Of a stretch of 46,208 bases of DNA, positions 4,731 to 41,352 are shown one piece after another. Within the stretch, counting starts at the first letter, position 1, and every line of letters begins with the position of its first letter. The position numbers and the translations under genes are program-made. Under the pieces are notes generated by a model. It was not told the origin of the DNA. It searched no databases and was given only the letters and a program-made list of their open reading frames with translations. Source of the DNA: a virus (Duplodnaviria; Caudoviricetes); the IMG/VR virus record IMGVR_UViG_3300031949_000069, positions 1 through 46,208 of that record. One strand, 5' to 3'.

Positions 4731-6077
4731 ATGAAGCCAATGTACGGGGTGACCCACCAGCCAACGGGCGAGCCGATCGTTGTTGAGCCGAAGGCCACGA
4801 AGGTCGGGATTGGGCTCCCGAAAGGCAAGGCGATCCACGCCTGGATGGATCAGAAACGCAGGTGGTGCGTCTTGGTCGGCAAGGACGTGAGCCGCTTCGA
4901 GGCCAGAAATGAGGCCATGACATTCTACCGCCAGGCCAAAATCTCGGGCCCCGATCGCCAGTACCCATCGAAGGTCAATTATTTCCTATTTCACCGGATC
5001 TCGGCGGATGGATCATTCGAGCCGGACTGGGACGCGATCGAGGCGCACGGGCCAATCCCAACCGAGATCTCGATCGTGTTTACGAGCGACGATCCGCTCG
5101 ATGCCGGCTATCAGTACTGGACGGCGACCGAGCGCCAATGCATGGGAGATGGATTGAACGCGGATCGCATCCTGTCGCTTGCGGCGACGGACGCCGAGCA
5201 AAAGCTGGCCGCGGCGGCCGCGCAGAAGGGGGAGCGGACGTTCCGCATCGAAAACGGCTGCTGGCTCCGGGGCTGCCGATTTGCGAAGCCGACGATGCGC
5301 GACGGCAAGGAGTTTCCGGCGCCCTGCCGGGCCCGGGCGCGCCTGGTCTTCCAGCTCCTGGCCTCCCCGCGCCTCGGCGGGACGGCATATTTCGATACGA
5401 CAGGGTTGCGGTCGATCTCGCAATTGTTTTCGTGTTTGCAGATTTTCCGGACGCTTTCAGGCCGCGGAGATCCCGCGCGCGGCTTTGTGGCCGGGATCCC
5501 ACTCTTGCTGGTCCTCCGGCCATACAGGACCAGTCACAACGGCCAGGCGTCGACGCAGTACGGTGTAAGCCTCGAGTTCCGCGCGGAATCGGCCGTCGAT
5601 CTAAAGCGGAAACTGATCGAGGCGGGACGGCAGTTTCAGGCGGAGTTCTCAGATCCTGGGCCGCTGGATCCGCTCGACGCCGGCGCCGGCGAGCCCGAGG
5701 ATCCGCCGGCGATCGTGGATCCGGAGGATCCCTGGGGCGACATGGCCGCGATCGCAGCCGGTGGGGATCCCGGAGCGTCGGCGCCCGCCCCAGAGGTTGT
5801 TCCCGCAGTGACCGCTTTCGTAGGCCCTCTCCCGGCGGCGAGGCGGGCCGGCGGCGGCGCCCCTCCGCCGATGCCTTCCGCGCCGCCGCTGGACCTGAAC
5901 CCGAAATGGACGGCATTCTACAAGCTCTGCCGCGCGCGCGGCATGACCGACGTCATGATTCTGGAGGAGCTCGGCCGGCGCGGATGTGAGCGGTCGACCG
6001 AGGTCCCCAACAGCGCCTATCCTGAGCTGATGCGATGGGCCGAGGCTTATAGGCCCGGCCAGAGGAATCTGCTGTGA
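4731..6077 (+). CDS. phiC31 gp3-like (recombination directionality factor-like) protein with a long acidic/Pro C-terminal tail
   Basis: PTEISIVF...CMGDG...C...C...CRARARLVFQL...GGTAYFDTTGLRSISQL pattern recalled for this family; likely start MKPMYG. Confidence 0.6.
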   Translation: MKPMYGVTHQPTGEPIVVEPKATKVGIGLPKGKAIHAWMDQKRRWCVLVGKDVSRFEARNEAMTFYRQAKISGPDRQYPSKVNYFLFHRISADGSFEPDWDAIEAHGPIPTEISIVFTSDDPLDAGYQYWTATERQCMGDGLNADRILSLAATDAEQKLAAAAAQKGERTFRIENGCWLRGCRFAKPTMRDGKEFPAPCRARARLVFQLLASPRLGGTAYFDTTGLRSISQLFSCLQIFRTLSGRGDPARGFVAGIPLLLVLRPYRTSHNGQASTQYGVSLEFRAESAVDLKRKLIEAGRQFQAEFSDPGPLDPLDAGAGEPEDPPAIVDPEDPWGDMAAIAAGGDPGASAPAPEVVPAVTAFVGPLPAARRAGGGAPPPMPSAPPLDLNPKWTAFYKLCRARGMTDVMILEELGRRGCERSTEVPNSAYPELMRWAEAYRPGQRNLL

Positions 6078-6454
6078 TCGCACTGCGAGTCGATCGCGTC
6101 CCCGTCGGCCCAAACAGCACCTTTCGTGGCGGGCGCCGCGTCCCGGGATTGCTGCGCTCGCACTGGGCGGCGCGCAAGAGGGACCTGGACGACTGGACCC
6201 TGGAGATCCGAGCCGCGGCCGGAGGGATCGGTTGCGCACGGCCCCTGGCGCGCAAGCTGGTCGTGATCGTACTGCATCGCCGGCGGATGCTCGACCCCGA
6301 CAACGCATACGGCAGTCTGAAGCCGGTGCTTGACGGTCTGAGGCGCAACGAATTGATCGCCGACGATTCCACGGCGCGGATCGAGCTCGTGATGAGGCAG
6401 GTGGTGGGGCAGCTGGAGCACACCGAGATCGCAATTATGGACCTGGAGGGCTGA
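6074..6454 (+). CDS. rusA: RusA-like Holliday junction resolvase
   Basis: RRMLDPDNAYGSLKPVLDGL...IADDS motif (DxDN, K, D, DD). Confidence 0.75.
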   Translation: MIALRVDRVPVGPNSTFRGGRRVPGLLRSHWAARKRDLDDWTLEIRAAAGGIGCARPLARKLVVIVLHRRRMLDPDNAYGSLKPVLDGLRRNELIADDSTARIELVMRQVVGQLEHTEIAIMDLEG

Positions 6455-7056
6455 TGGCCTACGAGAGCGATGAACGCCTCGAGAAGCTGGCCGCGGAGTT
6501 GATAGAAAAATGGCATCCGCATTTGAAGGCGGCAAAGATCGCCTATCTGCTGAACGACGCGCCCACTGCGGCCGGGCAACTCCGCCTCGGCAAAAAGCGG
6601 AAGCTTGGATCCGCTCGCCGCGTGCCCGAAATCTATGAGTCGCTGACCGGATTCGATTTCATCATCCAGATCAAGAAGGATATCTGGGACAAGATGGATC
6701 CGGAAACCCAGGAGGCGCTCCTGGATCACGAGCTCTGCCATTGCGGCGTCGACGGGGATGGCTGCTACATCAGGGAGCACGACGTCACCGAGTTCGCCGA
6801 GGTGATCGAGCGCCACGGATTCTGGTTGCCTGATGTGCGCAGTTTTTATGAGCGCTGCGATGCCGCGGCCCAGCGCAAGCTGCCTTTTCAATCAGATCCG
6901 CCGGCGCCGGTTTTGGGGCGCGGGACCTTGGAGATGGGCGATGTTAAAATCGAAATCGACATGGACCGCACCTGCAAGAAATGCGGCGGAAAGGGCGTGA
7001 CTGGCGGGGGAGTATGCCTGCGATGCGTGGGCAATGCTGCGTGGGCAATGCTGTGA
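6454..7056 (+). CDS. Putative phage metallopeptidase with C-terminal zinc ribbon
   Basis: ALLDHELCH (HExxH), HDVTEF..VIERHG, CKKC/CLRC. Confidence 0.8.
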   Translation: MAYESDERLEKLAAELIEKWHPHLKAAKIAYLLNDAPTAAGQLRLGKKRKLGSARRVPEIYESLTGFDFIIQIKKDIWDKMDPETQEALLDHELCHCGVDGDGCYIREHDVTEFAEVIERHGFWLPDVRSFYERCDAAAQRKLPFQSDPPAPVLGRGTLEMGDVKIEIDMDRTCKKCGGKGVTGGGVCLRCVGNAAWAML

Positions 7057-7120: not shown

Positions 7121-7558
7121 ATGTACGAAAATGTGATAGAGAATCTCGTGGCGCGCTGCGGACAATGCTGCATCGGCCAGGCTCTGCTCGCCCTGCGCCG
7201 CCTGAATGCGCCGGCTGAACCCGGCTCAACCCGAATCGATCCACATCAACCCACATCAGCCCGACCCAGGACCAGGCGCTCCAAGGCCGCTACAGCAGAT
7301 GCTACTGCACCCGCCGGCGAGAAGGCCTGCAAGAAGTGCGGCCAAATCAAACCCCTGGACGCGTTCCCGAAAAACAAAGAGTGCGCAGATGGCCGCCTGG
7401 GATCCTGCAAGGCGTGCGTGTCGGAACGGGCCCAAAAGAACTACATTGCCAGGACGGCCGGCGAGCCCAATTCGAAAAAGCCGTACAGCTGTAAATGCGG
7501 CAAAACGTTCCGCACGAAGTTTGTTTGCGACGAGCACAAAAAGAAATGCACGGCATGA
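7121..7558 (+). CDS. Zinc-finger protein
   Basis: GAGGAG RBS; CKKCGQIKPLDAF...CKAC and a C-terminal CxC...HxxxC. Confidence 0.7.
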   Translation: MYENVIENLVARCGQCCIGQALLALRRLNAPAEPGSTRIDPHQPTSARPRTRRSKAATADATAPAGEKACKKCGQIKPLDAFPKNKECADGRLGSCKACVSERAQKNYIARTAGEPNSKKPYSCKCGKTFRTKFVCDEHKKKCTA

Positions 7559-9387
7559 GAGAGGAGGGGCGCGTGGAGGAGTTTCAGATTCTACCCATCG
7601 ACCAGATCGTTGAATCCAAGACCAATCCGCGCCGCACGTTTCGCGGCATGGAGGAGCTCGTTGCAAGCGTCCGACAGCACGGGGTCCTGGTGCCGTTGCT
7701 GGTGCGTCCCGTGCCGATCAGCTCGGGCGAGAAGATTGGCCGGGCGCTCGGAATCGATCCTGATGTGACCGCCGCTAATGGCCACTATGAGATTGTCGCC
7801 GGGGCCCGGCGCTTTCGGGCCGCCCGGGAGGCAGGCCTGGCAGAGATCCCAGTGCGGGTCAAAGACCTTGGCGACGGCGAGGCGCTCGAGTTGCAGATCG
7901 TCGAGAATCTCTGCCGGGAAGATGTTCACCCGCTCGAAGAGGCGCTCGGATATGAGGTCCTGCTTGAGCGGCCGGGGTACGATGTCGCGGCGATCGCGGC
8001 GAAGGTCGTCCGGAGCGAGAGCTACATCTACCAGCGGCTGAAGCTCCTCGACCTGATCGAGCCGGCCAGGGACAAATTTTTGGAGGATGTGATTACAGCC
8101 GGGCACGCGGTCCTGATCGCCAGGCTGCAGCCCCGCGAGCAGAAGCAAGCCCTTGAGGAGGCGATCGACCGCACCCGCATCGTGAACGGAAAGCCCATCG
8201 TGTGCGGTGTCCGGGAGCTTGCCGCCTTCATCCAAACGCGCATTCATCTGGACCTCAAAAAGGCGATCTTCAAAAAGGACGATGCCGAGCTCGTCCACAA
8301 GGCCGGCCCCTGCACGACCTGCCACAAGCGGACCGGCTTCACACCTCAGCTATTCCCCGACATCGCGCAGAAAGACACTTGCACCGATCCTGCCTGCTGG
8401 GAGGTCAAGACCTCGGCCTGCATCGCACGGGAAATCGAGGTCGCGAAGAAAAGGGGCGAGCAGTTGCTTCAGATCAGCACCGAGTACGGCAGCTATGGGA
8501 GCAAGCCGAAGGCTAGCGAGCCGCCAAAAGCAAATAAATGGGTCGAGGTCAAGAAAGATCGTGGATGCGCCACAGCGCGCAAGGCGATCGTCGTCGAGGG
8601 CAACGACCGCCGCGGGCAGACGCTCCAGGTGTGCGCGGATAAGAGCTGCAAGCGGCATTGGGGAGGCGGATACAAGCACACCGGGCGCGACCCAAAGGAC
8701 ATCGCCAGGGAGCGCAAGCAGAAGGAGGCACTGACGAGAGAGATCGAGCTGCGGCGGCGGATCTTCGAGGCGGTGTTGGCTGCGGCGCCGGAGCGGCTGT
8801 CGCGCGAAGATCTCGACCTGGTGGCCATCGCCCTGGCTAACGAAATGCAGGGCAATGGCCACCAGGCTGTCGTCCAGCGCCATGGCTGGGAGCCGGGCAA
8901 ACGCAGGTGGGGCGGCCAGAACTGGCACTCGATAATTAACCGCGAGGCCCCGAAACTTAACGACGCGGATCTGCAGAAACTGCTGATAGAGATGTCGCTC
9001 CAGCGCGAGCTCGAGGTCTACAGCTGGGGCCCTTCGGTTCCGCCGGCCCAGTTGCTGGCGACCGCGGAGCGATATGGGATCGACGACGCCGCTATCTCGG
9101 CCTCCCTGGATGTAGAGATCCGGGAGAAGAAGGCCAAACAGGACGCCAGGAAAAAGAAGGCCGCGCCCCAAAAGAGCGCAAAGCCGAAGCGCGCCGCGAA
9201 AGCGACCGCGCCCGAGAAACCGCCGGCGCCTGCGGTCGTCTGCGAGCGTTGCGGGCACGATGAGGCGTTCATCGACGAGGCCGGCTGGTTCTGGAGCGAG
9301 AAATATCTCGTGGACAGCCGGTACGTTTGCACCGGCTGTGAAAGCCTGGAAAAGCAGAAGGGGCGCAAGGGGAAGAAGAGCCAATAG
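7555..9387 (+). CDS. ParB/RepB/Spo0J-family protein with Cys-rich central region
   Basis: NPRRTF...SVRQHGVLVPLLVR...IVAGARRFRAA...ENLCREDVHPLEEA; no parA nearby. Confidence 0.9.
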   Translation: MREEGRVEEFQILPIDQIVESKTNPRRTFRGMEELVASVRQHGVLVPLLVRPVPISSGEKIGRALGIDPDVTAANGHYEIVAGARRFRAAREAGLAEIPVRVKDLGDGEALELQIVENLCREDVHPLEEALGYEVLLERPGYDVAAIAAKVVRSESYIYQRLKLLDLIEPARDKFLEDVITAGHAVLIARLQPREQKQALEEAIDRTRIVNGKPIVCGVRELAAFIQTRIHLDLKKAIFKKDDAELVHKAGPCTTCHKRTGFTPQLFPDIAQKDTCTDPACWEVKTSACIAREIEVAKKRGEQLLQISTEYGSYGSKPKASEPPKANKWVEVKKDRGCATARKAIVVEGNDRRGQTLQVCADKSCKRHWGGGYKHTGRDPKDIARERKQKEALTREIELRRRIFEAVLAAAPERLSREDLDLVAIALANEMQGNGHQAVVQRHGWEPGKRRWGGQNWHSIINREAPKLNDADLQKLLIEMSLQRELEVYSWGPSVPPAQLLATAERYGIDDAAISASLDVEIREKKAKQDARKKKAAPQKSAKPKRAAKATAPEKPPAPAVVCERCGHDEAFIDEAGWFWSEKYLVDSRYVCTGCESLEKQKGRKGKKSQ

Positions 9388-9446
9388 CTGATTGCAGACG
9401 TCTGCAGAGGATTTATGACTTCATGCTGGGCCAAGAGGAACGGGTA

Positions 9447-10661
9447 ATGAAATGTCACAAATGCCTTCAATCGCGTGAGAGCGATCGGTTACCGCCCGGA
9501 TGGAAGCGGCATCGCGATGCAGTCTGGTGCAAGGCCTGCTGGCGCGCAGCCTACATTCTGCGAGCAATCACGGTGCCTGTTGCGGGGCCGCTAGACGCGG
9601 ACTGGAGGGAACTGAGGGATTGTCTTCAGATGTGCTGGGCCGACTCCACCGCTTTGGCAAACTGGGTGGTGACGGAACTCGCCAAGCGTGATGTGATTCG
9701 CGCGGGCGAAGCGAGGATGCCGAAGTTCGAGTTCGTGTATCTCTACCCGGACGCCCGCAAGAGATTCCCACATCTCAATTGCCAATCTGTAGTATCGATT
9801 CTGCAAGCGGTGGATCGTCGCTACCGCCGGCGCCGGCTCGAGGCGATCTGGCGATCGAGCGAGAGTCTACCTCGATACCGATATCCGATGCCTTATCCGA
9901 CCCATAATCAGGGATGGAAAGTCATCAAGCGCGGCAACGACTATACCCTGCGTGTCCGCATGCAGGGAGAACCATGGGACCTGCGCCTCCGCGGAGGAAA
10001 TGGCTTCGGGCGACAGCAGCGGCAGATGGACCAGATTCTCGATGGTTCGGCAGTGCAGGGCGAACTTGCGATCTATCGCGTCCGCGCGCACGCCGGCGAT
10101 CATCGCAATGGCGCAGCCGGCAAAGCCTCGGGAGAGAAGGCCTTCTATCGCATTATGACGAAAATGGTGGCGTGGCTCCCGCGTGAGGAGCGGCGCAAGG
10201 GCAAAGGGATTGTGCTATCGCTGCGCACGGCGAGCGATCGATTCTGGATCGCATCGTCGCCGGCGATCGAGGATATCTGGCATCTCAATGCCGACCAGGC
10301 GCGGACATGGATTATCGGCTATGAGCGATTCCGACAACGATTGTCGGAGGATCGCCGGCCCGAGACGCCCCGGCACCGCGCAAATCGGGATCTGGAATTG
10401 CGCGGCAAAAAGCATCGCGACCGGATTCGATCGTTCGTGCAGATGAGCGTGGCCGGGCTGGCGGGCTACGCGCGCCGCCGCGGCGTTGGTACGATCATCT
10501 ATCACGATACTGATCGCAGCTATTTCCCTTCATTCCCCTGGGCCGCTGTGGTGACGGCCCTACAGACAAAACTGGACGAGTACGGTATTGCATTCGAGCA
10601 CGCGAGCGCCGAGGTGGCGAGCGAATCGCCAGACCCGCTCGCGAAGGAGGAACATGAGTGA
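9447..10661 (+). CDS. Compact TnpB/Cas12f-like CRISPR-associated protein, predicted nuclease-dead (404 aa)
   Basis: N-terminal CHKC/CKAC zinc finger; SLPRYR..PYP WED-like motif; basic bridge-helix region; IIYHD at the RuvC-II position; FPW...LQTKLDEYGI. RuvC-I reads VLSLRT instead of GxDxG, and the C-terminal zinc finger and RuvC-III are absent. Abuts a CRISPR array. Confidence 0.7.
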   Translation: MKCHKCLQSRESDRLPPGWKRHRDAVWCKACWRAAYILRAITVPVAGPLDADWRELRDCLQMCWADSTALANWVVTELAKRDVIRAGEARMPKFEFVYLYPDARKRFPHLNCQSVVSILQAVDRRYRRRRLEAIWRSSESLPRYRYPMPYPTHNQGWKVIKRGNDYTLRVRMQGEPWDLRLRGGNGFGRQQRQMDQILDGSAVQGELAIYRVRAHAGDHRNGAAGKASGEKAFYRIMTKMVAWLPREERRKGKGIVLSLRTASDRFWIASSPAIEDIWHLNADQARTWIIGYERFRQRLSEDRRPETPRHRANRDLELRGKKHRDRIRSFVQMSVAGLAGYARRRGVGTIIYHDTDRSYFPSFPWAAVVTALQTKLDEYGIAFEHASAEVASESPDPLAKEEHE

Positions 10662-10778
10662 AATCAGGGAATACGGCCTCCCTCAGGCCGACCGCGCACC
10701 AGCGACCATCCGCTTGCCGGAGGACCGCTCGCGCATAACGCCGCAAGAGCTGGGGATGTCGGGCTTAGGCCCGCGGCC

Positions 10779-10959
10779 CCCGGAGTGACCGATTGAGATG
10801 ACGGTCACTGGGGGTTTGGGACCTGGTCTCGGATCGCTCTGTGTCCGACGGCCCGGAGTGACCGATTGAGATGACGGTCACTGGGGGAAGAAAGTGTAGC
10901 GCGGGCGCTGACTGTCTGTCCTCCCCGGAGTGACCGAACAACAAATCGGTCACTGCGGG
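10779..10959 (+). CRISPR. CRISPR mini-array: 36-bp repeat CCCGGAGTGACCGATTGAGATGACGGTCACTGGGGG, 3 repeats, 2 spacers (37 and 36 nt)
   Basis: Identical repeats at 10779-10814 and 10852-10887; degenerate repeat at 10924-10959; AGTGACCG/CGGTCACT stem; spacers 10815-10851 and 10888-10923. Confidence 0.93.
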
Positions 10960-11012
10960 TCTGAGCAAGCGTGCCCAGGTGTAACAACCGCCGTGTTGGA
11001 TGAGAGGTGATC

Positions 11013-11299: not shown

Positions 11300-11485
11300 A
11301 TGACCGGGAGCGCGGGCGTGGCGCGCCAGGCTCGGGACAAGAAGCGGGATCGGCGCAGCGCGATCGGGTTCTGTCCTCGTTGCCGGCGCCGGATCTATCT
11401 GCCGTTCGTCGAGCATGATGCCGATGAGTGTCCGCGCAAACTTCATGAGGACGCGAGGCTGATCCGCGAGGCGCCGAATGAGTAG
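11300..11485 (+). CDS. Small hypothetical protein (CxxC...HxxxxC)
   Basis: GGAGGT RBS; coupled to the next gene. Confidence 0.6.
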   Translation: MTGSAGVARQARDKKRDRRSAIGFCPRCRRRIYLPFVEHDADECPRKLHEDARLIREAPNE

Positions 11486-11708
11486 CCTTGTACTTGTGCC
11501 GATGGTAAAAGAGATTGGAGAGATGCAGCCGGGCGCGATGTTCGAATGCGAGGCGGCAAAATATCTGAAGCTTTCGGTCAACGAGCTTCGGAAATTTGTC
11601 CGGATCGGGCTGATCCCAGCCAGGCATCACCCGGAGCGCAGGCGCAGGATCTACCTGAGGTCAGACCTCGATCACTATCTGGAGTCGTTGCCCAGGGAGG
11701 CTGAATGA
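11478..11708 (+). CDS. xis: Excisionase-like winged-HTH protein
   Basis: EAAKYLKLSVNELRKFVRIGLIPA...RIYLRSDLDHYL, directly upstream of the integrase. Confidence 0.75.
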   Translation: MSSLVLVPMVKEIGEMQPGAMFECEAAKYLKLSVNELRKFVRIGLIPARHHPERRRRIYLRSDLDHYLESLPREAE

Positions 11709-12757
11709 CGGTCCACGAGCGCAACGGCAGGATCATCGTCGACACGATTTGGCCCGACGGCAAGCGCACGCGCCGCCAGGCGATCGATGTGAAGCAGGCC
11801 AGGGAACTCGATCTCAGGATCCGCGCGAGCCGCATCGACGGGACCTGGCGCGAGCTCAGGCGGAAACTCAACGCCGAGCACGCCGAGGGCATGAAGCTCA
11901 GGGAAGCCGCAGATCTCTATCTCGATCAGTACGTGCGCTCGAAAAACCGCGACCGCAAAAGCAAGAAGAGCCGCCTGGCCATCCTGGTGCGGGAGCTTGG
12001 CAATCTTCTGATCTCGGAAATCGGTCGCGCCGAGGCCTCGCGCTATTCCGCCAGGCGCCTGAAGGCCGGCATCTCTGCCCGGACGGTCAATCGCGACCTG
12101 GCGGTCCTGCGCCATCTGCTGGAGTGGTGCCGGCGCCAGCAGATCCTGGAAGCAAATCCTCTGCACGACTGGGAGCGCCTGGTCGAGCAGCCCTTCGAGG
12201 GGCGGAGACCGACCGGCGAAATCGTCGACCAGGTCATAGCCCGGGTCAGGGAGACGGTGCGTCCGCTATTCATCTTCCTGCGCGAGACGGGCTGCCGGCG
12301 CGAGGAGGGTCTTGCGCTCAAGCATTCCCAGGTCGATCTGCGCAACGCGGTGGTGCATCTGCACCGCACCAAGAGCGGCAAGCCGCGCAGCGTGCCCCTG
12401 ACCGCCGCAGCGATCGCCGCCATCCGCCAGATGCCGCGCACGTCGCGGACCGAGTACGTGTTTTATCATCCCGCCACGCTCACCAGGTGGAGCGAGGCCA
12501 AGGATCCGTGGGAGTCGGCGCGTAAGGCAGCAGGCCATCCCTGGCTCCGGATCCACGATTTGAGGCATGCCTATGCGATCCGCCTGGTCGAGGCCGGCGT
12601 GCCAATGGAAGTTGTGTCTGAAATGCTCGGTCATGCGACGATCGACTTCACCAAGAAAACCTATGCCAAATATGCGCCGACGTGGGCCGGCCGCGTTGTT
12701 TTGGCGGCACTGGAGGGAAGACAGGTTGAGGTACAAGAGAAAGTGCGTCGACGGTAA
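11705..12757 (+). CDS. int: Tyrosine integrase
   Basis: ETGCRREE (R), TKSGK (K), HDLRH, LGH, and catalytic Y in KTYAK. Confidence 0.95.
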   Translation: MTVHERNGRIIVDTIWPDGKRTRRQAIDVKQARELDLRIRASRIDGTWRELRRKLNAEHAEGMKLREAADLYLDQYVRSKNRDRKSKKSRLAILVRELGNLLISEIGRAEASRYSARRLKAGISARTVNRDLAVLRHLLEWCRRQQILEANPLHDWERLVEQPFEGRRPTGEIVDQVIARVRETVRPLFIFLRETGCRREEGLALKHSQVDLRNAVVHLHRTKSGKPRSVPLTAAAIAAIRQMPRTSRTEYVFYHPATLTRWSEAKDPWESARKAAGHPWLRIHDLRHAYAIRLVEAGVPMEVVSEMLGHATIDFTKKTYAKYAPTWAGRVVLAALEGRQVEVQEKVRRR

Positions 12758-13159: not shown

Positions 13160-13420
13160 TTGGCAAAAAAGTGGCAAGGCCGAAAATGAGGAAAACCGGT
13201 GATTCCGCGTAAACCACTGATTCTATTGGTACGCCTGGCAGGGTTCGAACCTGCGACCTTCGGTTCCGGAGTGCGACGCGTAACTCGCACTAGATGCCCA
13301 CTAGTTGCGATTGCGTGTGGATTGCGCGTCGGTTTCTGGTTCCTCATTTTGGCCGCATCTAAAATAGTTCTAACAGAAGAAAAAAGTGGCAAAAAAGTGG
13401 CAACGCAATTTGCCGCTTTT
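13160..13420. repeat. Arm-type integrase/accessory site candidates flanking attP
   Basis: TGGCAAAAAAGTGGCAA at 13161-13177; tandem AAAAA(A)GTGGCA at 13380-13403; inverted TTGCCGCTTTT at 13410-13420; inverted pair 13178-13193/13340-13354. Confidence 0.7.
13227..13271 (-). mobile_element. attP core = 3' half of tRNA-Arg(CCG)
   Basis: Minus strand CTCCGGA ACCGA AGGTC GCAGG TTCGAAC CCTGC CAGGCGT ACCA: anticodon loop, T-arm, 3' acceptor strand and CCA; the 5' half is absent. Confidence 0.88.
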
Positions 13421-29567: not shown

Positions 29568-30023
29568 ATGGCCGGATTCACAAACAAAGGAAAGTATCGG
29601 TTCTTCGATTGGATCTTCCGTGCGACGGCCTTGCCGACGAATTTCTATGCCGCGCTCGTCACTTCGGCCACGGCGCCTGTCGCGGACACCAACACCAAGT
29701 CCCAGCTGACCGAGATCGCCAACGGCCAGGGGTATACGACCGGCGGTATCTCGCTGACCAAGAACGCAACAGACTTTGATGTTCTGACCGAAGATGACGG
29801 CAACGACAAGGCGATTATCCAGATCAAGGACTTGGTCTGGACGGCGTCCGGGGGCAACCTGCCAGCATCGGGTAACGGCGCCAGGTATGGCGTGCTCACC
29901 GACGACAACGCGACGCAGGGATCGCGCGAGATATTCGCGTTTTGGGACCTGGTCTCGGATCGCTCTGTGTCCGACGGCCAGAGTTTGACTCTCCAAAACT
30001 GCGAGCTGGATCTGACCGAATAA
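29568..30023 (+). CDS. Virion structural protein (small fibre-type subunit B); contains the protospacer of CRISPR spacer 1
   Basis: GGGAGG RBS; FYAALVTS...EIANGQGYTTGG...DLVWTASGG...ARYGVL. Confidence 0.75.
   Translation: MAGFTNKGKYRFFDWIFRATALPTNFYAALVTSATAPVADTNTKSQLTEIANGQGYTTGGISLTKNATDFDVLTEDDGNDKAIIQIKDLVWTASGGNLPASGNGARYGVLTDDNATQGSREIFAFWDLVSDRSVSDGQSLTLQNCELDLTE
29941..29977 (+). other. Protospacer matching CRISPR spacer 1 (37/37 nt)
   Basis: TTTGGGACCTGGTCTCGGATCGCTCTGTGTCCGACGG occurs at both 10815 and 29941; 5' flank ...TTCGCGT, 3' flank CCAGAG. Confidence 0.98.
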
Positions 30024-34245: not shown

Positions 34246-37200
34246 ATGCCCGACTATATCGGCCAGGTCGAAGTCCCCGAGATCGCTCCGAGCGGCACCT
34301 TCCCCATTACGAGCGACTATGGCCATGGTCTGGAGCACGAACCCCAGGTAGTAGTGCATCGCTTCGGGAGCGGCAACGCCAAGATCGAGCAGCGGTTTTA
34401 CCTGGGGAACGGGGCTCGACGCTTCACAGTCCGGAAAGCTCGGATGCGGGAAGCGGACCGGATCGCGCTCAAGAACTTTTGGGAGAATCATTACGGCCCT
34501 TATGGAGCCTTCACCTACAATGCCCCCGACGACGATGGCGTCGGTACGACGGCCTACACGTGCCGCTTCGCCGACGAGCCCTTGTCGTGGGAATTTCTAT
34601 CTGATCAGATCTCCTCGGCCGGCGTTACCCTGATTGAGATCCCCTCGAGTCCGCCGACCTATACCCTGAATTCCACGGTCACGCGTTTTCCCTCGAGCGG
34701 CCTGCAGACAGCGCTCTTATCCCAGGTCCAGAAAATCATTCCGTTGGTGAAGATCCAGCCGCGCGAGACCGGTTATCCCGCGATCCATGTGTCAGACCGG
34801 CGCTGCACCGTCGGCGCGCAGCTCTACCAGGCGCGGCTGCTTGAATTCGAGGGTATTTCCCAATCGATCGGCAACGAGTCCGATGAGGCGGGATTTTTGT
34901 TTGGTAATGCGGATCGCGTGATGCGCGAGCTGGCCAACGACGTCGGCCTGGCGCGGGCTTCCCTGGAGTTCAGCCTCTTCCATGTCGGGACCGGGATCAA
35001 GCTCGATCTCTGGAAGGGCGAGGTCGTTCGCTGGGATTTCGATGACGGCCCTGCATTCCGACTGACGGCCGCCGACGGGATCTACGAGCTCACGCTGCCC
35101 TATCCGACCCGCCGCATCAGCCGCACCTGCTGGAAGTGCTTCGACGACGGCAACGGCTGCCCGTTCGCGACCCAAAGCTCCGGGATGGATTATGTTCATT
35201 TTCCGGACGCGGATCCGGATGTATGCGACAAGGGCTACGACACCGCGAGCGGTTGCCTGGCCCACGGGATGAAGCGCTATTTCGGCGGAGTCCTGGCCGA
35301 GCCGCAGAGCATCAAAATCAAGGACAACAGCACGGGCACCTGGGGCTTCAGGCGCTCCATGATGACGAGCGTCAGCCTGGTATCGGAATCGATCTACGAC
35401 CAGATGATTCCAGAGATATATACCGATACCGACATGCAGGTGAATTGCAGGCTTGCCGCGGGTCGAGAGGAATCGGACTTCTATGACGCGCTCGGCATTG
35501 TGGGGGAGGGCCCGCTCACCTTCGGCGACGGGCATAAGCTCGACGGCGAGTACCACCACGGTCACCCCGGAGTGGCCGGTCTGCGCGAGGTAGAGGGCAG
35601 CGATCCGGCGGGCGCCGGCGAATACTTCTCGCTCGGCCAGGTGGGCGACGCCGACGGCGACTGGCGCAAGGCCGAGGTCGGCGATTACGTTTTCCGCGAC
35701 AACTACGCCGCCGGCATTGCTTTCCTCGAAATGCGCCGGACCGATGAGACGGGGCGGCAGCTCTCACAGGTGTCGGACCACGAAATGCAGGCCGTGGTCA
35801 GGTACGGCCTGTACGGCTGGATCTGGACCGGCGCCGGCGCGCGCACCTGGCAGATCCTCACCAATCCGATCTGGATCGCGGTGAACATGATGCTGCGCGC
35901 GCGCGGGCTGCGTTACGCCAACGCGGCAACGGCCGAGCAATATTTCGATGTCGTGGCCGCCATAGCCGCAGCCGCGATCTGCGACGAGAGTGTTACGCCG
36001 ATGATGGACCGCGAGCGGACCATCTGGATCCCGGAGGAGGAGGATCCTGAGAATCCCGGCGAGATGATCCCGGGCCATTGGATCACGGAGCCGGTGGCCC
36101 TTGAAGCCCAGTTCCGGTTCCGCGGGATACTCCAGGAAGAGAAGCCGCTGCGGGATTGGATCCAGGAAATTCTGATGAATTGCCTGGGCTACTACAGCTT
36201 CGTTTTCAACAAGTTGAAGCTCGGGATCCGAATCAATTCATCGGTCGAGGAGGCCTTCACGGAAGGTAACATCCTCCTTCACAGCCTCAAGCTCGCCTCG
36301 ATCAACCCCGCCTTCAACCACTTGACCGCGTACTTTGCCGACGAAGAGTTTGAGGCGGCGACCAACTCGGTCTTGGTCTATGACATCGACAACGCCAAGC
36401 TGATCGGAGGGGTGGCGGCTCCGCTATACACGAAGGGGCAGATCAACCTTTCGGGAGCCGCGACCAAGTCGCAGGCCGGCCGGATCGTGACGACCAGACT
36501 GCGCGAGGAGCTCGGCGGCATCACCGAGGCGCAATGGAAAGCCGGGCGTGAGCTCTCGCTTCTGACCACGGTCCTGGCCCTCAACGTTGAGCCCGGCATG
36601 GTCTGCTCGATGACTCATCCAGATATGCCCGACGGCATGCTCGACGGGGAACCCGAGCCGAACTACGGCGAGTTCCGCGTCACGGGCTGGCGGCTCAACC
36701 GGGATTACTCGATCGAGATTACGGGCAGGACCACGGTCGACGAGATGTACGACCTGACGGTCGGGCCGAGGCCCGCGGACGTCCAGGCGCCGGCGCTTCC
36801 GATCGAACTTCCGTCGATGCCGCCGCGGGCGACAGGCGGGAAGGCGATCGCCGGATCGGGCAACGCATCCGGAGATCCAACGGTCACTGAGCTCCTGGTC
36901 CAGGATGACGTCAACCCGGACTTCTACCACCGTAAGATCCAGGTCGAGTTCACGCCTCCGCCCGCAGAGTACAACAATGTCTTCTCGCGGCGCACGCTCC
37001 TGGGCTATATCTCGCAGGATGACGAGGGCGGCTCCATCCCGGGCGACCAGGTCGTCTATGTGGAGGTCTGCCCCCGGAAAGAGGATCTTGACGGCATCGC
37101 CTCAGAGCCAGTCAAGATCACGATTCCCGCCGGAACGTCGACGAACAGCTTCACGATCCAGTGCCGGCTGCCGGCGGAAGCCACTCACTACTCGGTCCGG

Positions 37201-40200
37201 ATCGGGCCGACCGTCGGGAGGATGTACGGCCTCGGCAGTCCGATCGCGTCTCCCGGGACGGACTGGTTTGAGATCGTCGTCACAAATATCTCAGGCCTCA
37301 ACTCCGCATCGCTATCTCCGGATCCGCGGTACCACCACGCGCACGTTTTCTATTACTACGACGGCTCAGCCGAGAATGTGCGCGACGGCGGCAAGACGTC
37401 GGGCCCGGAAGATACCGAGCTGATATTCGAGCCCGAGGCCCCGGAAAGCGCCGACGCCAACATCACGGTTGTTGTGCGTTCCTCGAACGAGGATGAAAGC
37501 GATCTCTTCCCGTTCGACGACAGCCCGGCTGCCGGCGCCGCGCTCACAAAGGACAGCGGCAACCCAAGCGGCGCCGCGAACCTCGATATTTTGACGACGA
37601 TCGATGATGCGGATATCCCGCCCGGCATGGTGGTGTTCGAGTGCGACCCGGAGCTTGTGAACGCGTCGAGCATATACCGCTTCGATGTCTGGATGTCCAC
37701 GGCCCTGCCGGCATACGGACCCTACCAGGCAGAGCGCGACGCGCATGCCGACGAGATTATCGAGGGTCCCTACGCGGTCACGATCCTGCCGGGCAACAGG
37801 CGCGTATCTGTGACCAGGTCCGCCTCGGCCGACGTCATCAACGGCGTTCTACTCATTTTTACCAACGACGCCTCGCCCGATTCAGATCTAGAAGGCATGG
37901 TCGTTCAGGCGCAAGGCACAAACTATCTGGATGTCGACAAGGCCTTCGCCAAAGCCGGCGCCTACACCGGTTATGTGATCACCCCGAATTGGACACTGCT
38001 TCCATTCTATCGATCATTCCGCATCGATGAGATCGGAGGGGTAGCGGCCGAGAAATGGCGGACGCCTCCGGCGCCCTGTCCGATCGGCACCTTTTATGCG
38101 ACTGCCGCCGCCCGGTCCAAATATGGAGTCGGCACCAGGCTGACGGCGGGGCCCTTCACCTTCCAGGCCGGCGGCGAGGCTCCGGACGATGTTGTCCCAG
38201 AGGACCTGCTTGAGGAGGTCGTCTACGCCAAGGACGGCGCGGCTCTGTCGGTAGTGACCGTTGAGGTTACCTACCCGGCAACGAGCATTCCCGCGGGCGT
38301 CGACGTGTATTGGAAGAGGCGCGATGATACGCTCGGCTCGCTGCATCTCGGAACCAAACTGCGCGAATCGGCCGCGGACGAGGATCCGAATCTTTCGGGA
38401 GTACAGAACATCGGGCTTCTCCCGCCGCTTCCATTTGCGGCCGATTCCACGATCGACGTTTTCTATCACGCCCTGAATTCCTCGGGCTACGGGAAGGCGA
38501 TCGAGTGGCTTGAGACCGAGACCGTCAAGACCCTGGCGACCGAAGGCGGGATCGACGCGGATCCGGACACGGTGCTGGTGGAGTTTTCGAGCATCACCGA
38601 TCTCGCCGCCGGGGACATTGTCAAGATCGACACTGAGTATCTGGTGTTGGTTTCGGTCGAGAATGTCGCCGGGCATTGGATCTGGACGGTGCTGCGCGCG
38701 CAGCATGGCACGGCGATCGCGTCCCACGCTTTCGGGGCCAATTGCACCAAGATCGTATGTTCCATCCCCTACAACTCGAAGCTGCTCGATGGGGAGACGG
38801 ACACGCTCCCGCAGGTTCCCGATGTCGAGGCGCTCTCCGGCGAAAAGATCATCAAGCTGCGCTGGGCACACTACGCCACACCGCAGGATCGGCGCGTCAA
38901 GCACTACAACATCTACCGCGGCGACACGGGCAATTACGATTTCGCGCAACTCGTGGCCCAGGTCGACACGACGTTTTATGTCGACATGTTTGCCACGGCG
39001 TCCGATACCAGGTACTACTATTGGGTCCGGGCCGTCAGCAACAGCGGCATCCTGGGCGCCAACCTCACCAGCGCGGTCGCGGCCTACCAGACCGGCGACG
39101 AGGGCGTGCCCGATGATCTCACAATCGTGGTGATCGCCGAGCGGCAACTGAACGGCGCGACGCAGTACACCTGGGGTGTCGACTTCGTCGGCGTTCAGAA
39201 TGCCGCCGGCATCGAGCATGTTCTGGTTCAGATCGCGCGCGATCCCTCGTTTGCCGATCCGATCTTCGACCAGACCTATGGAGCGTTCCCGGTCAGCGGT
39301 ACCTGGAGCACAACCGAGCTCGGCACCTTCTTCTTCCGGGCAAAGGCCGAAAACGCTTTCGGCTGGTCCGACTGGTCGCCGACCGTGGCGAAAACTCCGG
39401 GCGATACGTTCATCGTGCCCGATACGAGCTATCCCGGGACGGTGCAGAACCTGACGCTTGAGGCAGCAGACGCCGATCCGACGGCAAGCGGCCTTGAGCT
39501 TGTCGTCACCTGGAATCCGCCGGCAGATGGCCTGAACACGCTGTTCCATTACGGCGTGATGATCCACAACAACGTCACCTTCCCGGCCAACACAATTCAC
39601 AAGGCGGCCGCCGGAGGCCTGCAGTTTCATCCGGGCTCGGACGAATTTACGGATCCGAACTTTGACTTCACCGGCCAGGAGGGGCGCTACATTTTCGTTT
39701 ACCGCGGCAGCTACGATGCTGACGACCACAACCTGATCATGGGCGATCGGATCAAGGAAGTGGTGCCCGGTACCGACGGCCATACCGTCACCCTGTACAC
39801 GACGTCCCGGTACGATCATTCGGACGGAACCTACCAATATGCCATCGTGACGCCAGCCTGGGTGCAGTGCATCCGGCCTCTGGTGATCTCCCCGAAATCG
39901 CTGGGGGGCCCGATCAACATGCAGGAATCGAGCTTCCGCGAAATCGTGAGCGGACTCGGGCCCGGCACCTATTACGTAAAGGTGCGCGGGGTGAACGCGC
40001 ACGGTTTCGGCGACTATGCGACCGCCGGCCCGGCCACCATTGCGGGTATTTCGGCTGATGATCTCGACGAGGACGTCGCCGACGCTATTGATGCGGCTGG
40101 AGGGCTGATCGATACCGCCCTCCCGAGTGTGCTCCAGAATGTGGCCGTGACGGGAGCCGATGGGAGATTTCGCGCGACCTGGGAAGCGCCCGCGACCGGA

Positions 40201-41352
40201 AGCAACCGCCTCATCGACGTCGTGGAACAATATGACACCGTCCCAACGTTCAACTCCGGCAACCTGGTCACCTTCACCTTCGGCCAGTGGATTGCCGACG
40301 TCAAAGGGACCGATCCCAACAAGAGCTATTACTTCCGCATGGCCGCGCGCAACAACAGCGGCCTGGAAAGCAATGCGACAACAAAGGCGATCGTGAATGG
40401 CATCGGCCGTGACGGCGATACCGGCTGGGGGCCGCTCTGTGCTGCGGTTGGACCCATTGCATCAGGACCGCTTCCGACAACGGCCCTCGAAGAGGATACC
40501 CAGGATGGGATCACCGGAGCGATAGCGGGCCTGGATACTTCCGGGGATCTGGTACGGGATGTGACCACCAGTAAAGTGGTCACGAATAGCATTCTGAACG
40601 CCAATGTGACGGCTGCAAAGGTCAGTGTTTCTCACGTCTCTGATCTGAATGCGGACTTGGGAACGATCACGGCAGGCACGATCATAGGCACCACGATCAA
40701 GACTGCTGCCAGCGGAGCGCGAATTGAATTCCAAGGTGCTGGTGGCATCATTTACAATTCAGCCGGCAATCCCATCCTCTATCTCGCGGCCAACGCAAAT
40801 GCCAGATTTGAATTGTCGGATGTAGATTGCGTAGGCTATCTCTTCCTGTCATCGAATATCTGTAATGCCACGGGACAGAACATCATCGACGGACCAAATA
40901 AAAAGTTTATCGGCCTTGGTGGCGTGGACACGGAGGGGCTCGTCGACGCCTATCTGGGATTCAAGGTCGACGGCACTGAAGTGATCAGCTCTAGCAAAGT
41001 CTTTACCGGCCCTGGTGGCATAGCATGTGTCACCGGTAGCCTGGAATTGACAGTTGGTCACATTTCGGTTGGCGATTACATCAACACCCAGGACAGCTAC
41101 CACATTGACGGATCCGACGTGATCAACGCCTCATCCTGTTTTGTCGGCCTTGGTGGCGTGGACACGGTCGGCGACGTGAAGGGCGCTTCGCTTTACCTCG
41201 GCACCTCGGGCGGCGGATATACGCAATTGACGAAGGCAGATCTTGACTCCCTGCTGGCGCTGATCGGCCATGTGCATGGTATAAGCCTCATGACGAGTTT
41301 TGATGAAGGTCATGAGCATTCAGTGATCGGCGAATCAGGCGGCCCATCATAG
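34246..41352 (+). CDS. Large tail-tip/central fibre protein (hub fusion with multiple FN3 domains)
   Basis: 2368 aa; N-terminal gpM-like domain; Cys cluster CWKC...C...C...C; FN3 motifs (YYYWVRAV, FFFRAKAEN, YYVKVRGVN, YYFRMAARN); DLGTITAGTI; repeated GLGGVDT in the C-terminus. Confidence 0.9.
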   Translation: MPDYIGQVEVPEIAPSGTFPITSDYGHGLEHEPQVVVHRFGSGNAKIEQRFYLGNGARRFTVRKARMREADRIALKNFWENHYGPYGAFTYNAPDDDGVGTTAYTCRFADEPLSWEFLSDQISSAGVTLIEIPSSPPTYTLNSTVTRFPSSGLQTALLSQVQKIIPLVKIQPRETGYPAIHVSDRRCTVGAQLYQARLLEFEGISQSIGNESDEAGFLFGNADRVMRELANDVGLARASLEFSLFHVGTGIKLDLWKGEVVRWDFDDGPAFRLTAADGIYELTLPYPTRRISRTCWKCFDDGNGCPFATQSSGMDYVHFPDADPDVCDKGYDTASGCLAHGMKRYFGGVLAEPQSIKIKDNSTGTWGFRRSMMTSVSLVSESIYDQMIPEIYTDTDMQVNCRLAAGREESDFYDALGIVGEGPLTFGDGHKLDGEYHHGHPGVAGLREVEGSDPAGAGEYFSLGQVGDADGDWRKAEVGDYVFRDNYAAGIAFLEMRRTDETGRQLSQVSDHEMQAVVRYGLYGWIWTGAGARTWQILTNPIWIAVNMMLRARGLRYANAATAEQYFDVVAAIAAAAICDESVTPMMDRERTIWIPEEEDPENPGEMIPGHWITEPVALEAQFRFRGILQEEKPLRDWIQEILMNCLGYYSFVFNKLKLGIRINSSVEEAFTEGNILLHSLKLASINPAFNHLTAYFADEEFEAATNSVLVYDIDNAKLIGGVAAPLYTKGQINLSGAATKSQAGRIVTTRLREELGGITEAQWKAGRELSLLTTVLALNVEPGMVCSMTHPDMPDGMLDGEPEPNYGEFRVTGWRLNRDYSIEITGRTTVDEMYDLTVGPRPADVQAPALPIELPSMPPRATGGKAIAGSGNASGDPTVTELLVQDDVNPDFYHRKIQVEFTPPPAEYNNVFSRRTLLGYISQDDEGGSIPGDQVVYVEVCPRKEDLDGIASEPVKITIPAGTSTNSFTIQCRLPAEATHYSVRIGPTVGRMYGLGSPIASPGTDWFEIVVTNISGLNSASLSPDPRYHHAHVFYYYDGSAENVRDGGKTSGPEDTELIFEPEAPESADANITVVVRSSNEDESDLFPFDDSPAAGAALTKDSGNPSGAANLDILTTIDDADIPPGMVVFECDPELVNASSIYRFDVWMSTALPAYGPYQAERDAHADEIIEGPYAVTILPGNRRVSVTRSASADVINGVLLIFTNDASPDSDLEGMVVQAQGTNYLDVDKAFAKAGAYTGYVITPNWTLLPFYRSFRIDEIGGVAAEKWRTPPAPCPIGTFYATAAARSKYGVGTRLTAGPFTFQAGGEAPDDVVPEDLLEEVVYAKDGAALSVVTVEVTYPATSIPAGVDVYWKRRDDTLGSLHLGTKLRESAADEDPNLSGVQNIGLLPPLPFAADSTIDVFYHALNSSGYGKAIEWLETETVKTLATEGGIDADPDTVLVEFSSITDLAAGDIVKIDTEYLVLVSVENVAGHWIWTVLRAQHGTAIASHAFGANCTKIVCSIPYNSKLLDGETDTLPQVPDVEALSGEKIIKLRWAHYATPQDRRVKHYNIYRGDTGNYDFAQLVAQVDTTFYVDMFATASDTRYYYWVRAVSNSGILGANLTSAVAAYQTGDEGVPDDLTIVVIAERQLNGATQYTWGVDFVGVQNAAGIEHVLVQIARDPSFADPIFDQTYGAFPVSGTWSTTELGTFFFRAKAENAFGWSDWSPTVAKTPGDTFIVPDTSYPGTVQNLTLEAADADPTASGLELVVTWNPPADGLNTLFHYGVMIHNNVTFPANTIHKAAAGGLQFHPGSDEFTDPNFDFTGQEGRYIFVYRGSYDADDHNLIMGDRIKEVVPGTDGHTVTLYTTSRYDHSDGTYQYAIVTPAWVQCIRPLVISPKSLGGPINMQESSFREIVSGLGPGTYYVKVRGVNAHGFGDYATAGPATIAGISADDLDEDVADAIDAAGGLIDTALPSVLQNVAVTGADGRFRATWEAPATGSNRLIDVVEQYDTVPTFNSGNLVTFTFGQWIADVKGTDPNKSYYFRMAARNNSGLESNATTKAIVNGIGRDGDTGWGPLCAAVGPIASGPLPTTALEEDTQDGITGAIAGLDTSGDLVRDVTTSKVVTNSILNANVTAAKVSVSHVSDLNADLGTITAGTIIGTTIKTAASGARIEFQGAGGIIYNSAGNPILYLAANANARFELSDVDCVGYLFLSSNICNATGQNIIDGPNKKFIGLGGVDTEGLVDAYLGFKVDGTEVISSSKVFTGPGGIACVTGSLELTVGHISVGDYINTQDSYHIDGSDVINASSCFVGLGGVDTVGDVKGASLYLGTSGGGYTQLTKADLDSLLALIGHVHGISLMTSFDEGHEHSVIGESGGPS

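Follow-up and report, generated by a model that had tools for sequence, protein, structure and literature searches.

A phage-borne Cas12f-type effector, predicted to be nuclease-dead, with an adjoining CRISPR array and a candidate natural single guide

Organization of the locus

The virus record IMGVR_UViG_3300031949_000069 (Duplodnaviria; Caudoviricetes), analysed here over its full length of 46,208 nt and referred to as the window, encodes a small Cas12f-like effector whose gene is adjoined by a CRISPR array (Table 1). A first-pass annotation made from the sequence had described one open reading frame (ORF) followed 117 nt later by three repeats, and this arrangement holds: the array starts 117 nt past the effector stop codon and its three 36-nt repeats (100, 100, and 78% identity) are spaced 73 and 72 nt apart, each of them forming a hairpin (z -3.1 and -6.7). 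The module is real and intact-looking.

Table 1. Coordinates of the effector module, its self-target, and neighbouring genes in the window
Feature	Position	Strand	Remarks
ParB-like gene	7555..9387	+	Upstream of effector gene
Predicted nuclease-dead Cas12f-type effector, 404 aa	9447..10661	+	Alternative ATG at 9423 gives 412 aa
N-terminal CxxC...CxxC finger (C3, C6, C28, C31)	9453..9539	+	Predicted zinc binding
Predicted scaffold RNA (tracrRNA/omegaRNA-like)	10671..10778	+	Abuts repeat 1; model R1 and covariation
Repeat 1	10779..10814	+	5' arm is the predicted anti-repeat, 3' arm the predicted crRNA handle
Spacer 1, 37 nt	10815..10851	+	Identical to window 29941-29977
Repeat 2	10852..10887	+	Same sequence as repeat 1
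Spacer 2, 36 nt	10888..10923	+	No target found
Repeat 3, terminal	10924..10959	+	78% identity, hairpin retained
Excisionase-like gene (helix-turn-helix, HTH_17)	11478..11708	+	Downstream of array
Tyrosine integrase gene	11705..12757	+	Downstream of array, after the xis-like gene
Spacer 1 self-protospacer	29941..29977	+	Sense strand, 5' flank GCGT, near gene 3' end
tracrRNA, trans-activating CRISPR RNA; crRNA, CRISPR RNA.

The effector and its homologs

The effector consists of a REC/WED region and a truncated RuvC domain, and structural comparison places the REC-WED-RuvC fold of its model closest to Cas12f. All of the motifs picked out in the first-pass annotation are present (SLPRYRYP, VLSLRT, IIYHD, KLDEYGI, and the N-terminal CxxC...CxxC), and its description of the protein as Cas12f/TnpB-like, nuclease-dead, and C-terminally truncated is supported, as R260 and H353 occupy the RuvC-I Asp and RuvC-II Glu positions (D225 and E324 in AsCas12f1), equivalents of AsCas12f1 R383 and D401 are missing, and there is neither a C-terminal zinc finger nor a RuvC-III. 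Alignment to Cas12f structures begins at residue 30-37, i.e. after the N-terminal Cys4 finger, with model residues 30-386 aligning with residues 1-365 of 9n9m. The residue of AsCas12f1 that reads the protospacer adjacent motif (PAM), Y76, is retained as Y100, and the S92 position is occupied by V116; PAM-residue and catalytic-residue assignments follow the relevant portions of bioRxiv 10.1101/2025.06.10.658880 and 10.1101/2023.07.03.547593.

The family to which this protein belongs comprises 744 clusters at 50% identity and is not named by any Pfam, NCBIfam, or PHROG model. The N-terminal Cys4 finger is found in 165 of 219 homologs and Tyr at the Y100 position in 215, none of the 219 has a CxxC after the EYGI motif (median tail 22 aa), and the RuvC-I Asp and RuvC-III are missing throughout. 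The RuvC-II column holds Asp in 153/219 homologs and the next column Asp in 163/219, giving a family YDD motif. Carriers are phages (records of 23-96 kb) and metagenome-assembled genomes (MAGs) labelled Acidobacteriota, Bryobacterales, or Planctomycetaceae; cas1 is present in none of eight phage records and in four of eight MAGs. No constant partner gene was seen at the few loci whose neighbourhoods were read. One carrier (locus L020; L228-L230, G419:C7) is a 41.8-kb contig in a Saccharibacteria MAG bin that looks like a mobile element or phage, and four long ORFs tested on it have no Pfam match. A more distant homolog (L259; G600:C53, 2780-3100), in a genome of the same phylum as G426, is accompanied by a different repeat and by a scaffold that escapes the model described below.

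A predicted scaffold RNA fused to the first repeat

The first-pass annotation had seen no anti-repeat and considered the system possibly tracrRNA-independent. The 117-nt gap corresponds instead to a conserved scaffold, predicted to be structured, that is fused upstream of repeat 1, and tracrRNA independence appears refuted as far as comparative data of this kind can do so. The region between stop codon and array is conserved among homologs, even at loci lacking an array. A model (R1) built from a structure hand-drawn on alignment A2 was searched in the window and in 91 of 104 homolog loci, 13 being omitted as duplicates or for want of downstream DNA, and some near-duplicates remaining. It matches the window at 10671-10818 (85.9 bits, the window belonging to the training set) and identifies the element in 64 of the 71 loci with at least 300 nt of downstream sequence; among the 35 of these not used for training it is found in 28, and of the seven loci without a hit four are partial protein matches. 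All 36 pairs of the structure show two-sided changes, above shuffled and slid controls, in an alignment fitted to the structure. Because the R1 element ends in repeat 1, the scaffold, repeat, and first spacer together form a predicted natural single guide, and covariation and half-repeat complementarity predict that the anti-repeat is supplied in this fused form.

Arrays vary considerably among homologs. At least two full repeats are present at 28 of the 71 loci and at least three at 21, and others have a single repeat. Short spacers alternate with 8-12-nt half repeats in runs at five loci (L008, L011, L016, L017, L093), and pairing between half repeat and anti-repeat arm is predicted at -16.8, -16.4, and -5.9 kcal/mol for three half-repeat loci. 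One phage record (G007; L008 at 6155-6900, with L125, L126, and L127) contains four scaffolds and several 12-nt half-repeat arrays with spacers of ~8-40 nt, some of the arrays lying upstream of a scaffold, which implies pairing in trans. The run at L011 (6340-8400) has 27 half-repeat copies counted after the scaffold, with long runs also at L016, L017, and L093, and at L011 a second scaffold with full repeats lies 2.1 kb further downstream.

Several further observations concern these elements. At L067 (4320-5877) two scaffold-array units are inverted and face each other, and some spacers are reversed between the related loci L064, L067, and L098. In many homolog genes, as at window 10600-10645, the final codons contain a short motif that also occurs in the scaffold; the RNA might begin within the gene, or a duplication might have left this scar. 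On the minus strand at window 5802-5814, antisense within a Gp3-like gene, 13 nt reproduce the 3' arm of repeat 3 exactly, with a chance expectation of 0.13 even allowing one mismatch; this is possibly an orphan half-repeat guide, or a chance match.

Spacer targets and their flanks

Spacer 1 matches the window itself at 37/37 positions, a match that the first-pass annotation had missed. The self-protospacer lies in a 151-aa gene (29568-30023; phrog_644) of the virion/tail module, upstream of the large tail genes, and the corresponding site in 15 related phages differs by 8-18 bases. The spacer unitig has a depth of 58 compared with 30 around it, as for two copies, in a run that is possibly the source of the window and is not independent of it. 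Spacers were collected from the window and 18 other carrier records or contigs, 17 of the 19 yielding 69 full-length spacers; half-repeat spacers were parsed incompletely and their short length precludes placement. Two of the 69 match their own records, both perfectly and both in first position, in the window and in L020, and the L020 spacer is likewise the scaffold-fused one.

Other matches are to mobile or defence DNA. Two of the five spacers of L019, an Acidobacteriota MAG locus, perfectly match other contigs: one target is an element resembling a satellite, which carries integrases and DnaB, and the other, that of spacer 4, is an Xre gene heading an operon of a Cas4-like nuclease and a class II prokaryotic Argonaute (pAgo) beside a type I restriction-modification (R-M) locus (L165 and L233; G017:C6), matched on the strand complementary to the mRNA. 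A second array copy (G017:C11) has variant spacers resembling spacers 4 and 5, which suggests repeated capture from related elements. Spacer 1 of L074 matches window 13226-13260 at 34/35 positions, downstream of the integrase gene, in a stretch resembling a tRNA 3' end that we take to be the probable attP; in L074's own copy of this attachment (att)-like target the flank is TTG and there are two mismatches on the seed side. In two pairs of divergent loci (L021/L032 and L024/L041) the guides start with the same 9-12 bases, which hints at conserved targets, with no match in the MAGs tested.

The flanks of the two perfect non-self targets, both of L019, are TTT and TTC (TT background 0.052 per site), and those of the self-targets are CGT in the window and TGC in L020, with no common motif beyond G at position -2. 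Position -2 falls on the wobble base of a codon at both self-targets (GCG for Ala in the window; GTG for Val in L020, in the frame of ORF L218:1329-1859), so that a twin with a silent T would carry CTT or TTC. The G at -2 fits, weakly, with an inert self-match, either by escape or by survival of only those self-spacers that lack a PAM.

The phage genome

The record is 97% complete by CheckV and contains terminase, portal, capsid-protease, tail, endolysin, integrase, and xis-like genes, the last two of which, downstream of the array, mark the phage as likely temperate. The effector gene, suggested in the first-pass annotation to be expressed in an early operon, is in the same orientation as the parB-like, xis, and int genes, and no promoter was found. 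The first-pass claim that cas1, cas2, cas4, and cas6 are all missing stands for cas1 (PF01867), which is absent from the 46,208-nt record (search control positive in 7/14 genomes); cas2, cas4, and cas6 are not among the 12 ORFs scanned with Pfam or the 30 with PHROGs, no family-level search having been made, and the same applies to tnsB, tnsC, and tniQ, the neighbours of Cas12k in CRISPR-associated transposons, among the scanned ORFs. Sigma-70 region 2/rpoE (PF04542) is absent from the record (control positive in 10/14 genomes). One depth-3 contig in run X1 fuses position 9405 to 11003, omitting the whole module, with AGAGG on both sides, a faint sign that the site may be empty in some related phage. 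The 2,368-aa ORF at 34246-41352 has weak tail/tail-fibre PHROG matches only, at residues 1426-1715.

Proposed function

Binding without cutting, which is common to rival silencing, self-regulation, and silencing of host or defence DNA, is highly probable for this system, and among these we lean slightly towards binding-only silencing of near-identical rival phages and of other mobile or defence DNA. A Cas12f derivative lacking nuclease residues would load the predicted single guide of scaffold, repeat 1, and spacer 1; covariation predicts that the scaffold folds with the 5' arm of repeat 1 as anti-repeat, and crRNAs from further downstream would pair with this anti-repeat in trans. To judge from four sites, the ribonucleoprotein (RNP) would require a T-rich PAM (TTN/YTN) 5' of its target, and its binding would block transcription of matching DNA with no cutting. 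The self-protospacer would be left unbound owing to its G at -2, and in a sibling phage with a silent T there the virion gene would be silenced, giving RNA-programmed exclusion of close kin. Spacers would presumably be added in trans by host Cas1-Cas2. Kin exclusion as the general role in temperate phages is a tentative proposal, in which guides would come from the phage itself or from a twin, self and sibling would be told apart by one silent base in the PAM, rival virion genes would be silenced, and across the family one scaffold would serve full arrays, single guides, and 8-12-nt half-repeat arrays in trans, as a living series between CRISPR and omegaRNA systems.

A number of points weigh against the silencing of rivals as set out above. 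Unguided RNAalifold recovers 13 pairs (11 with two-sided changes), covering the first hairpin and the repeat stem only, alignment A3 was fitted to the hand-drawn structure, and taken by itself the window scaffold shows no folding advantage over shuffled sequences (z -1.2). The PAM derives from two non-self and two self sites belonging to proteins ~38-40% identical to each other, and the PAM-reading helix has V116 in the window and Ala in L019, L020, and L074; the retained Tyr (Y100) is not diagnostic, because Fta dCas12f also has Tyr and reads 5'-G. G is common at the wobble base (GCG 288 and GCT 57 of 724 Ala codons), and a T at -2 was not encountered in any sibling. Within their own records, 67 of the 69 spacers lack a match; spacer 2 of the window has no known target, and neither the spacers of the L025 array nor four single guides yielded a match in their own MAGs. 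The L019 targets lie on other MAG contigs and could reflect mis-binning. A sense-strand site near a gene end is a weak roadblock position in CRISPR interference (CRISPRi) practice.

The self-match could be read differently, with the RNP bound at 29941 within the late operon of the phage itself, where it would dampen virion and tail expression so as to hold lysogeny or time lysis. Such a self-regulator would account for a perfect match in a virion gene that precedes the large tail genes, for the independent second perfect self-match in L020, also by a scaffold-fused first spacer, and for a module adjoining xis and int, and self-binding is survivable with a dead effector. We think it unlikely, since no more than two of the 69 spacers, from 17 records, are self-matches, their flanks share only the G at -2, unlike the TTT and TTC of non-self targets, and the targets are intragenic, on the sense strand, and away from promoters. 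First spacers are usually the newest, and self-spacers in first position fit recent capture rather than a tuned circuit. It is quite unlikely that the family chiefly silences host defence or housekeeping genes, the match of window spacer 1 being accidental: L019 spacer 4, on the mRNA-complementary strand of the gene heading the pAgo operon beside the R-M locus, speaks for this reading but is a single case, window spacer 2 has no match, and the four single guides have no target in their own MAGs. The published phage dCas14 directed at a host tRNA synthetase, as described in the part of PMC7162821 concerned with it, likewise favours such counter-defence or host reprogramming.

Two other alternatives concern the effector itself. 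The truncated RuvC face or N-terminal finger might dock a polymerase, integrase, or ParB-like partner, so that the protein would switch genes on or direct recombination. Its truncation point coincides with that of Fta dCas12f, whose truncated RuvC binds sigmaE; the added Cys4 finger is conserved, and an att site of tRNA type is among the spacer matches (L074 spacer 1). With no sigma-70 region 2 gene in the record, no constant partner at the few neighbourhoods read, and spacers that are diverse rather than att-specific, a recruiter is nevertheless highly improbable. Residual cutting, by a rearranged site built on the family YDD motif or with a partner-supplied RuvC-III, is barely credible: the window protein has His at RuvC-II, the RuvC-I Asp and RuvC-III are missing family-wide, and perfect self-spacers persist, set against the frequent Asp residues at RuvC-II and the next column (153 and 163 of 219 homologs) and the existence of TnpBs with rearranged RuvC sites, which are noted in passages of PMC10691335.

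Relationship to known systems

The window effector is 10-17% identical to type V-F Cas12f1 proteins (AsCas12f1, 7wju/8j12; OsCas12f, 9nzq; SpCas12f1, 9i8y), whose genes are likewise adjoined by CRISPR arrays. Relative to these it has lost the catalytic residues, zinc finger, and RuvC-III and has gained the N-terminal Cys4 finger; its scaffold is fused in cis to repeat 1, whereas the Cas12f1 tracrRNA is separate, and cas1 is lacking. With the dCas12f-sigmaE systems of Bacteroidota (Hoffmann et al., PMC13472631; 9n9c/9n9m), as presented in the sections dealing with them, it shares the C-terminal truncation point, a dead RuvC, and, by prediction, a natural single guide directly downstream of the gene, but it differs in having no rpoE in the record, a retained array, an N-terminal finger, and a phage location, at 12-14% identity. 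Extended Data Fig. 1a,b of the same paper includes array-adjacent dCas12f proteins with covarying upstream guide RNAs (gRNAs), proposed to be repressors, with a Chitinophagaceae example. On that figure's evidence these have the same architecture as the window: dead Cas12f, covarying gRNA, array, and no rpoE. The legend and passages on this CRISPR-adjacent cluster mention neither phages nor half-repeat arrays, six motifs of our family have no match in the first 400 characters per cell of supplementary file 3, and the two are apparently separate lineages, as far as these comparisons indicate.

Phage-encoded relatives are also in print. Huge phages encode a dCas14 that is read as a repressor in the passages describing it (Al-Shayeb et al. 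2020, PMC7162821), and it shares with the window system a phage-borne Cas12f/Cas14, catalytic loss, and the lack of adaptation genes. There a single residue is lost and the target is in the host, whereas in the window protein all of the residues and the C-terminus are gone, and our family has mobile-element and self targets and phage records of 23-96 kb. Phage mini-arrays directed against related viruses are reviewed in PMC11656645, which in the part consulted also covers Cas12m (type V-M), a protein with a dead RuvC that blocks transcription of rival mobile DNA and is found on prophages as well. Cas12m is the best functional analogue, and membership was rejected as neither tracrRNA independence nor the Cas12m fold was found. 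TldR proteins, nuclease-dead and TnpB-like, are RNA-guided repressors, some of them on prophages; assignment to this group was rejected too, the window effector being closer to Cas12f and having an array.

The first-pass suggestion of an undescribed type V lineage overstates the novelty: the family has no name in Pfam, NCBIfam, or PHROG and our literature searches found no description of it, but array-linked dCas12f (PMC13472631) and phage dCas14 (PMC7162821) are already reported in the portions cited. Systems of this kind are published, and what appear not to be are the lineage, the N-terminal finger, the series from array to half repeats, and the self-versus-sibling PAM pattern, though the clade may already be contained in the Hoffmann set or among V-U6 to V-U45 of Altae-Tran et al. 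2023. If correct, this would add to the natural CRISPRi-like effectors a large phage-borne lineage that is unannotated, whose proteins of ~400 aa come with a single guide of ~140 nt already in place. What nuclease-dead type V systems do for phages, be it counter-defence, self-control, or the exclusion of rivals, becomes testable, and the half-repeat arrays suggest a natural form of multiplexing that relies on very short handles. PMC10691335, in the passages relevant here, lists inactivated V-U24/43/44 and proposes fusion of a tracrRNA with a half repeat as an evolutionary scenario, and with the present family the existence of working intermediates in that scenario becomes a testable question.
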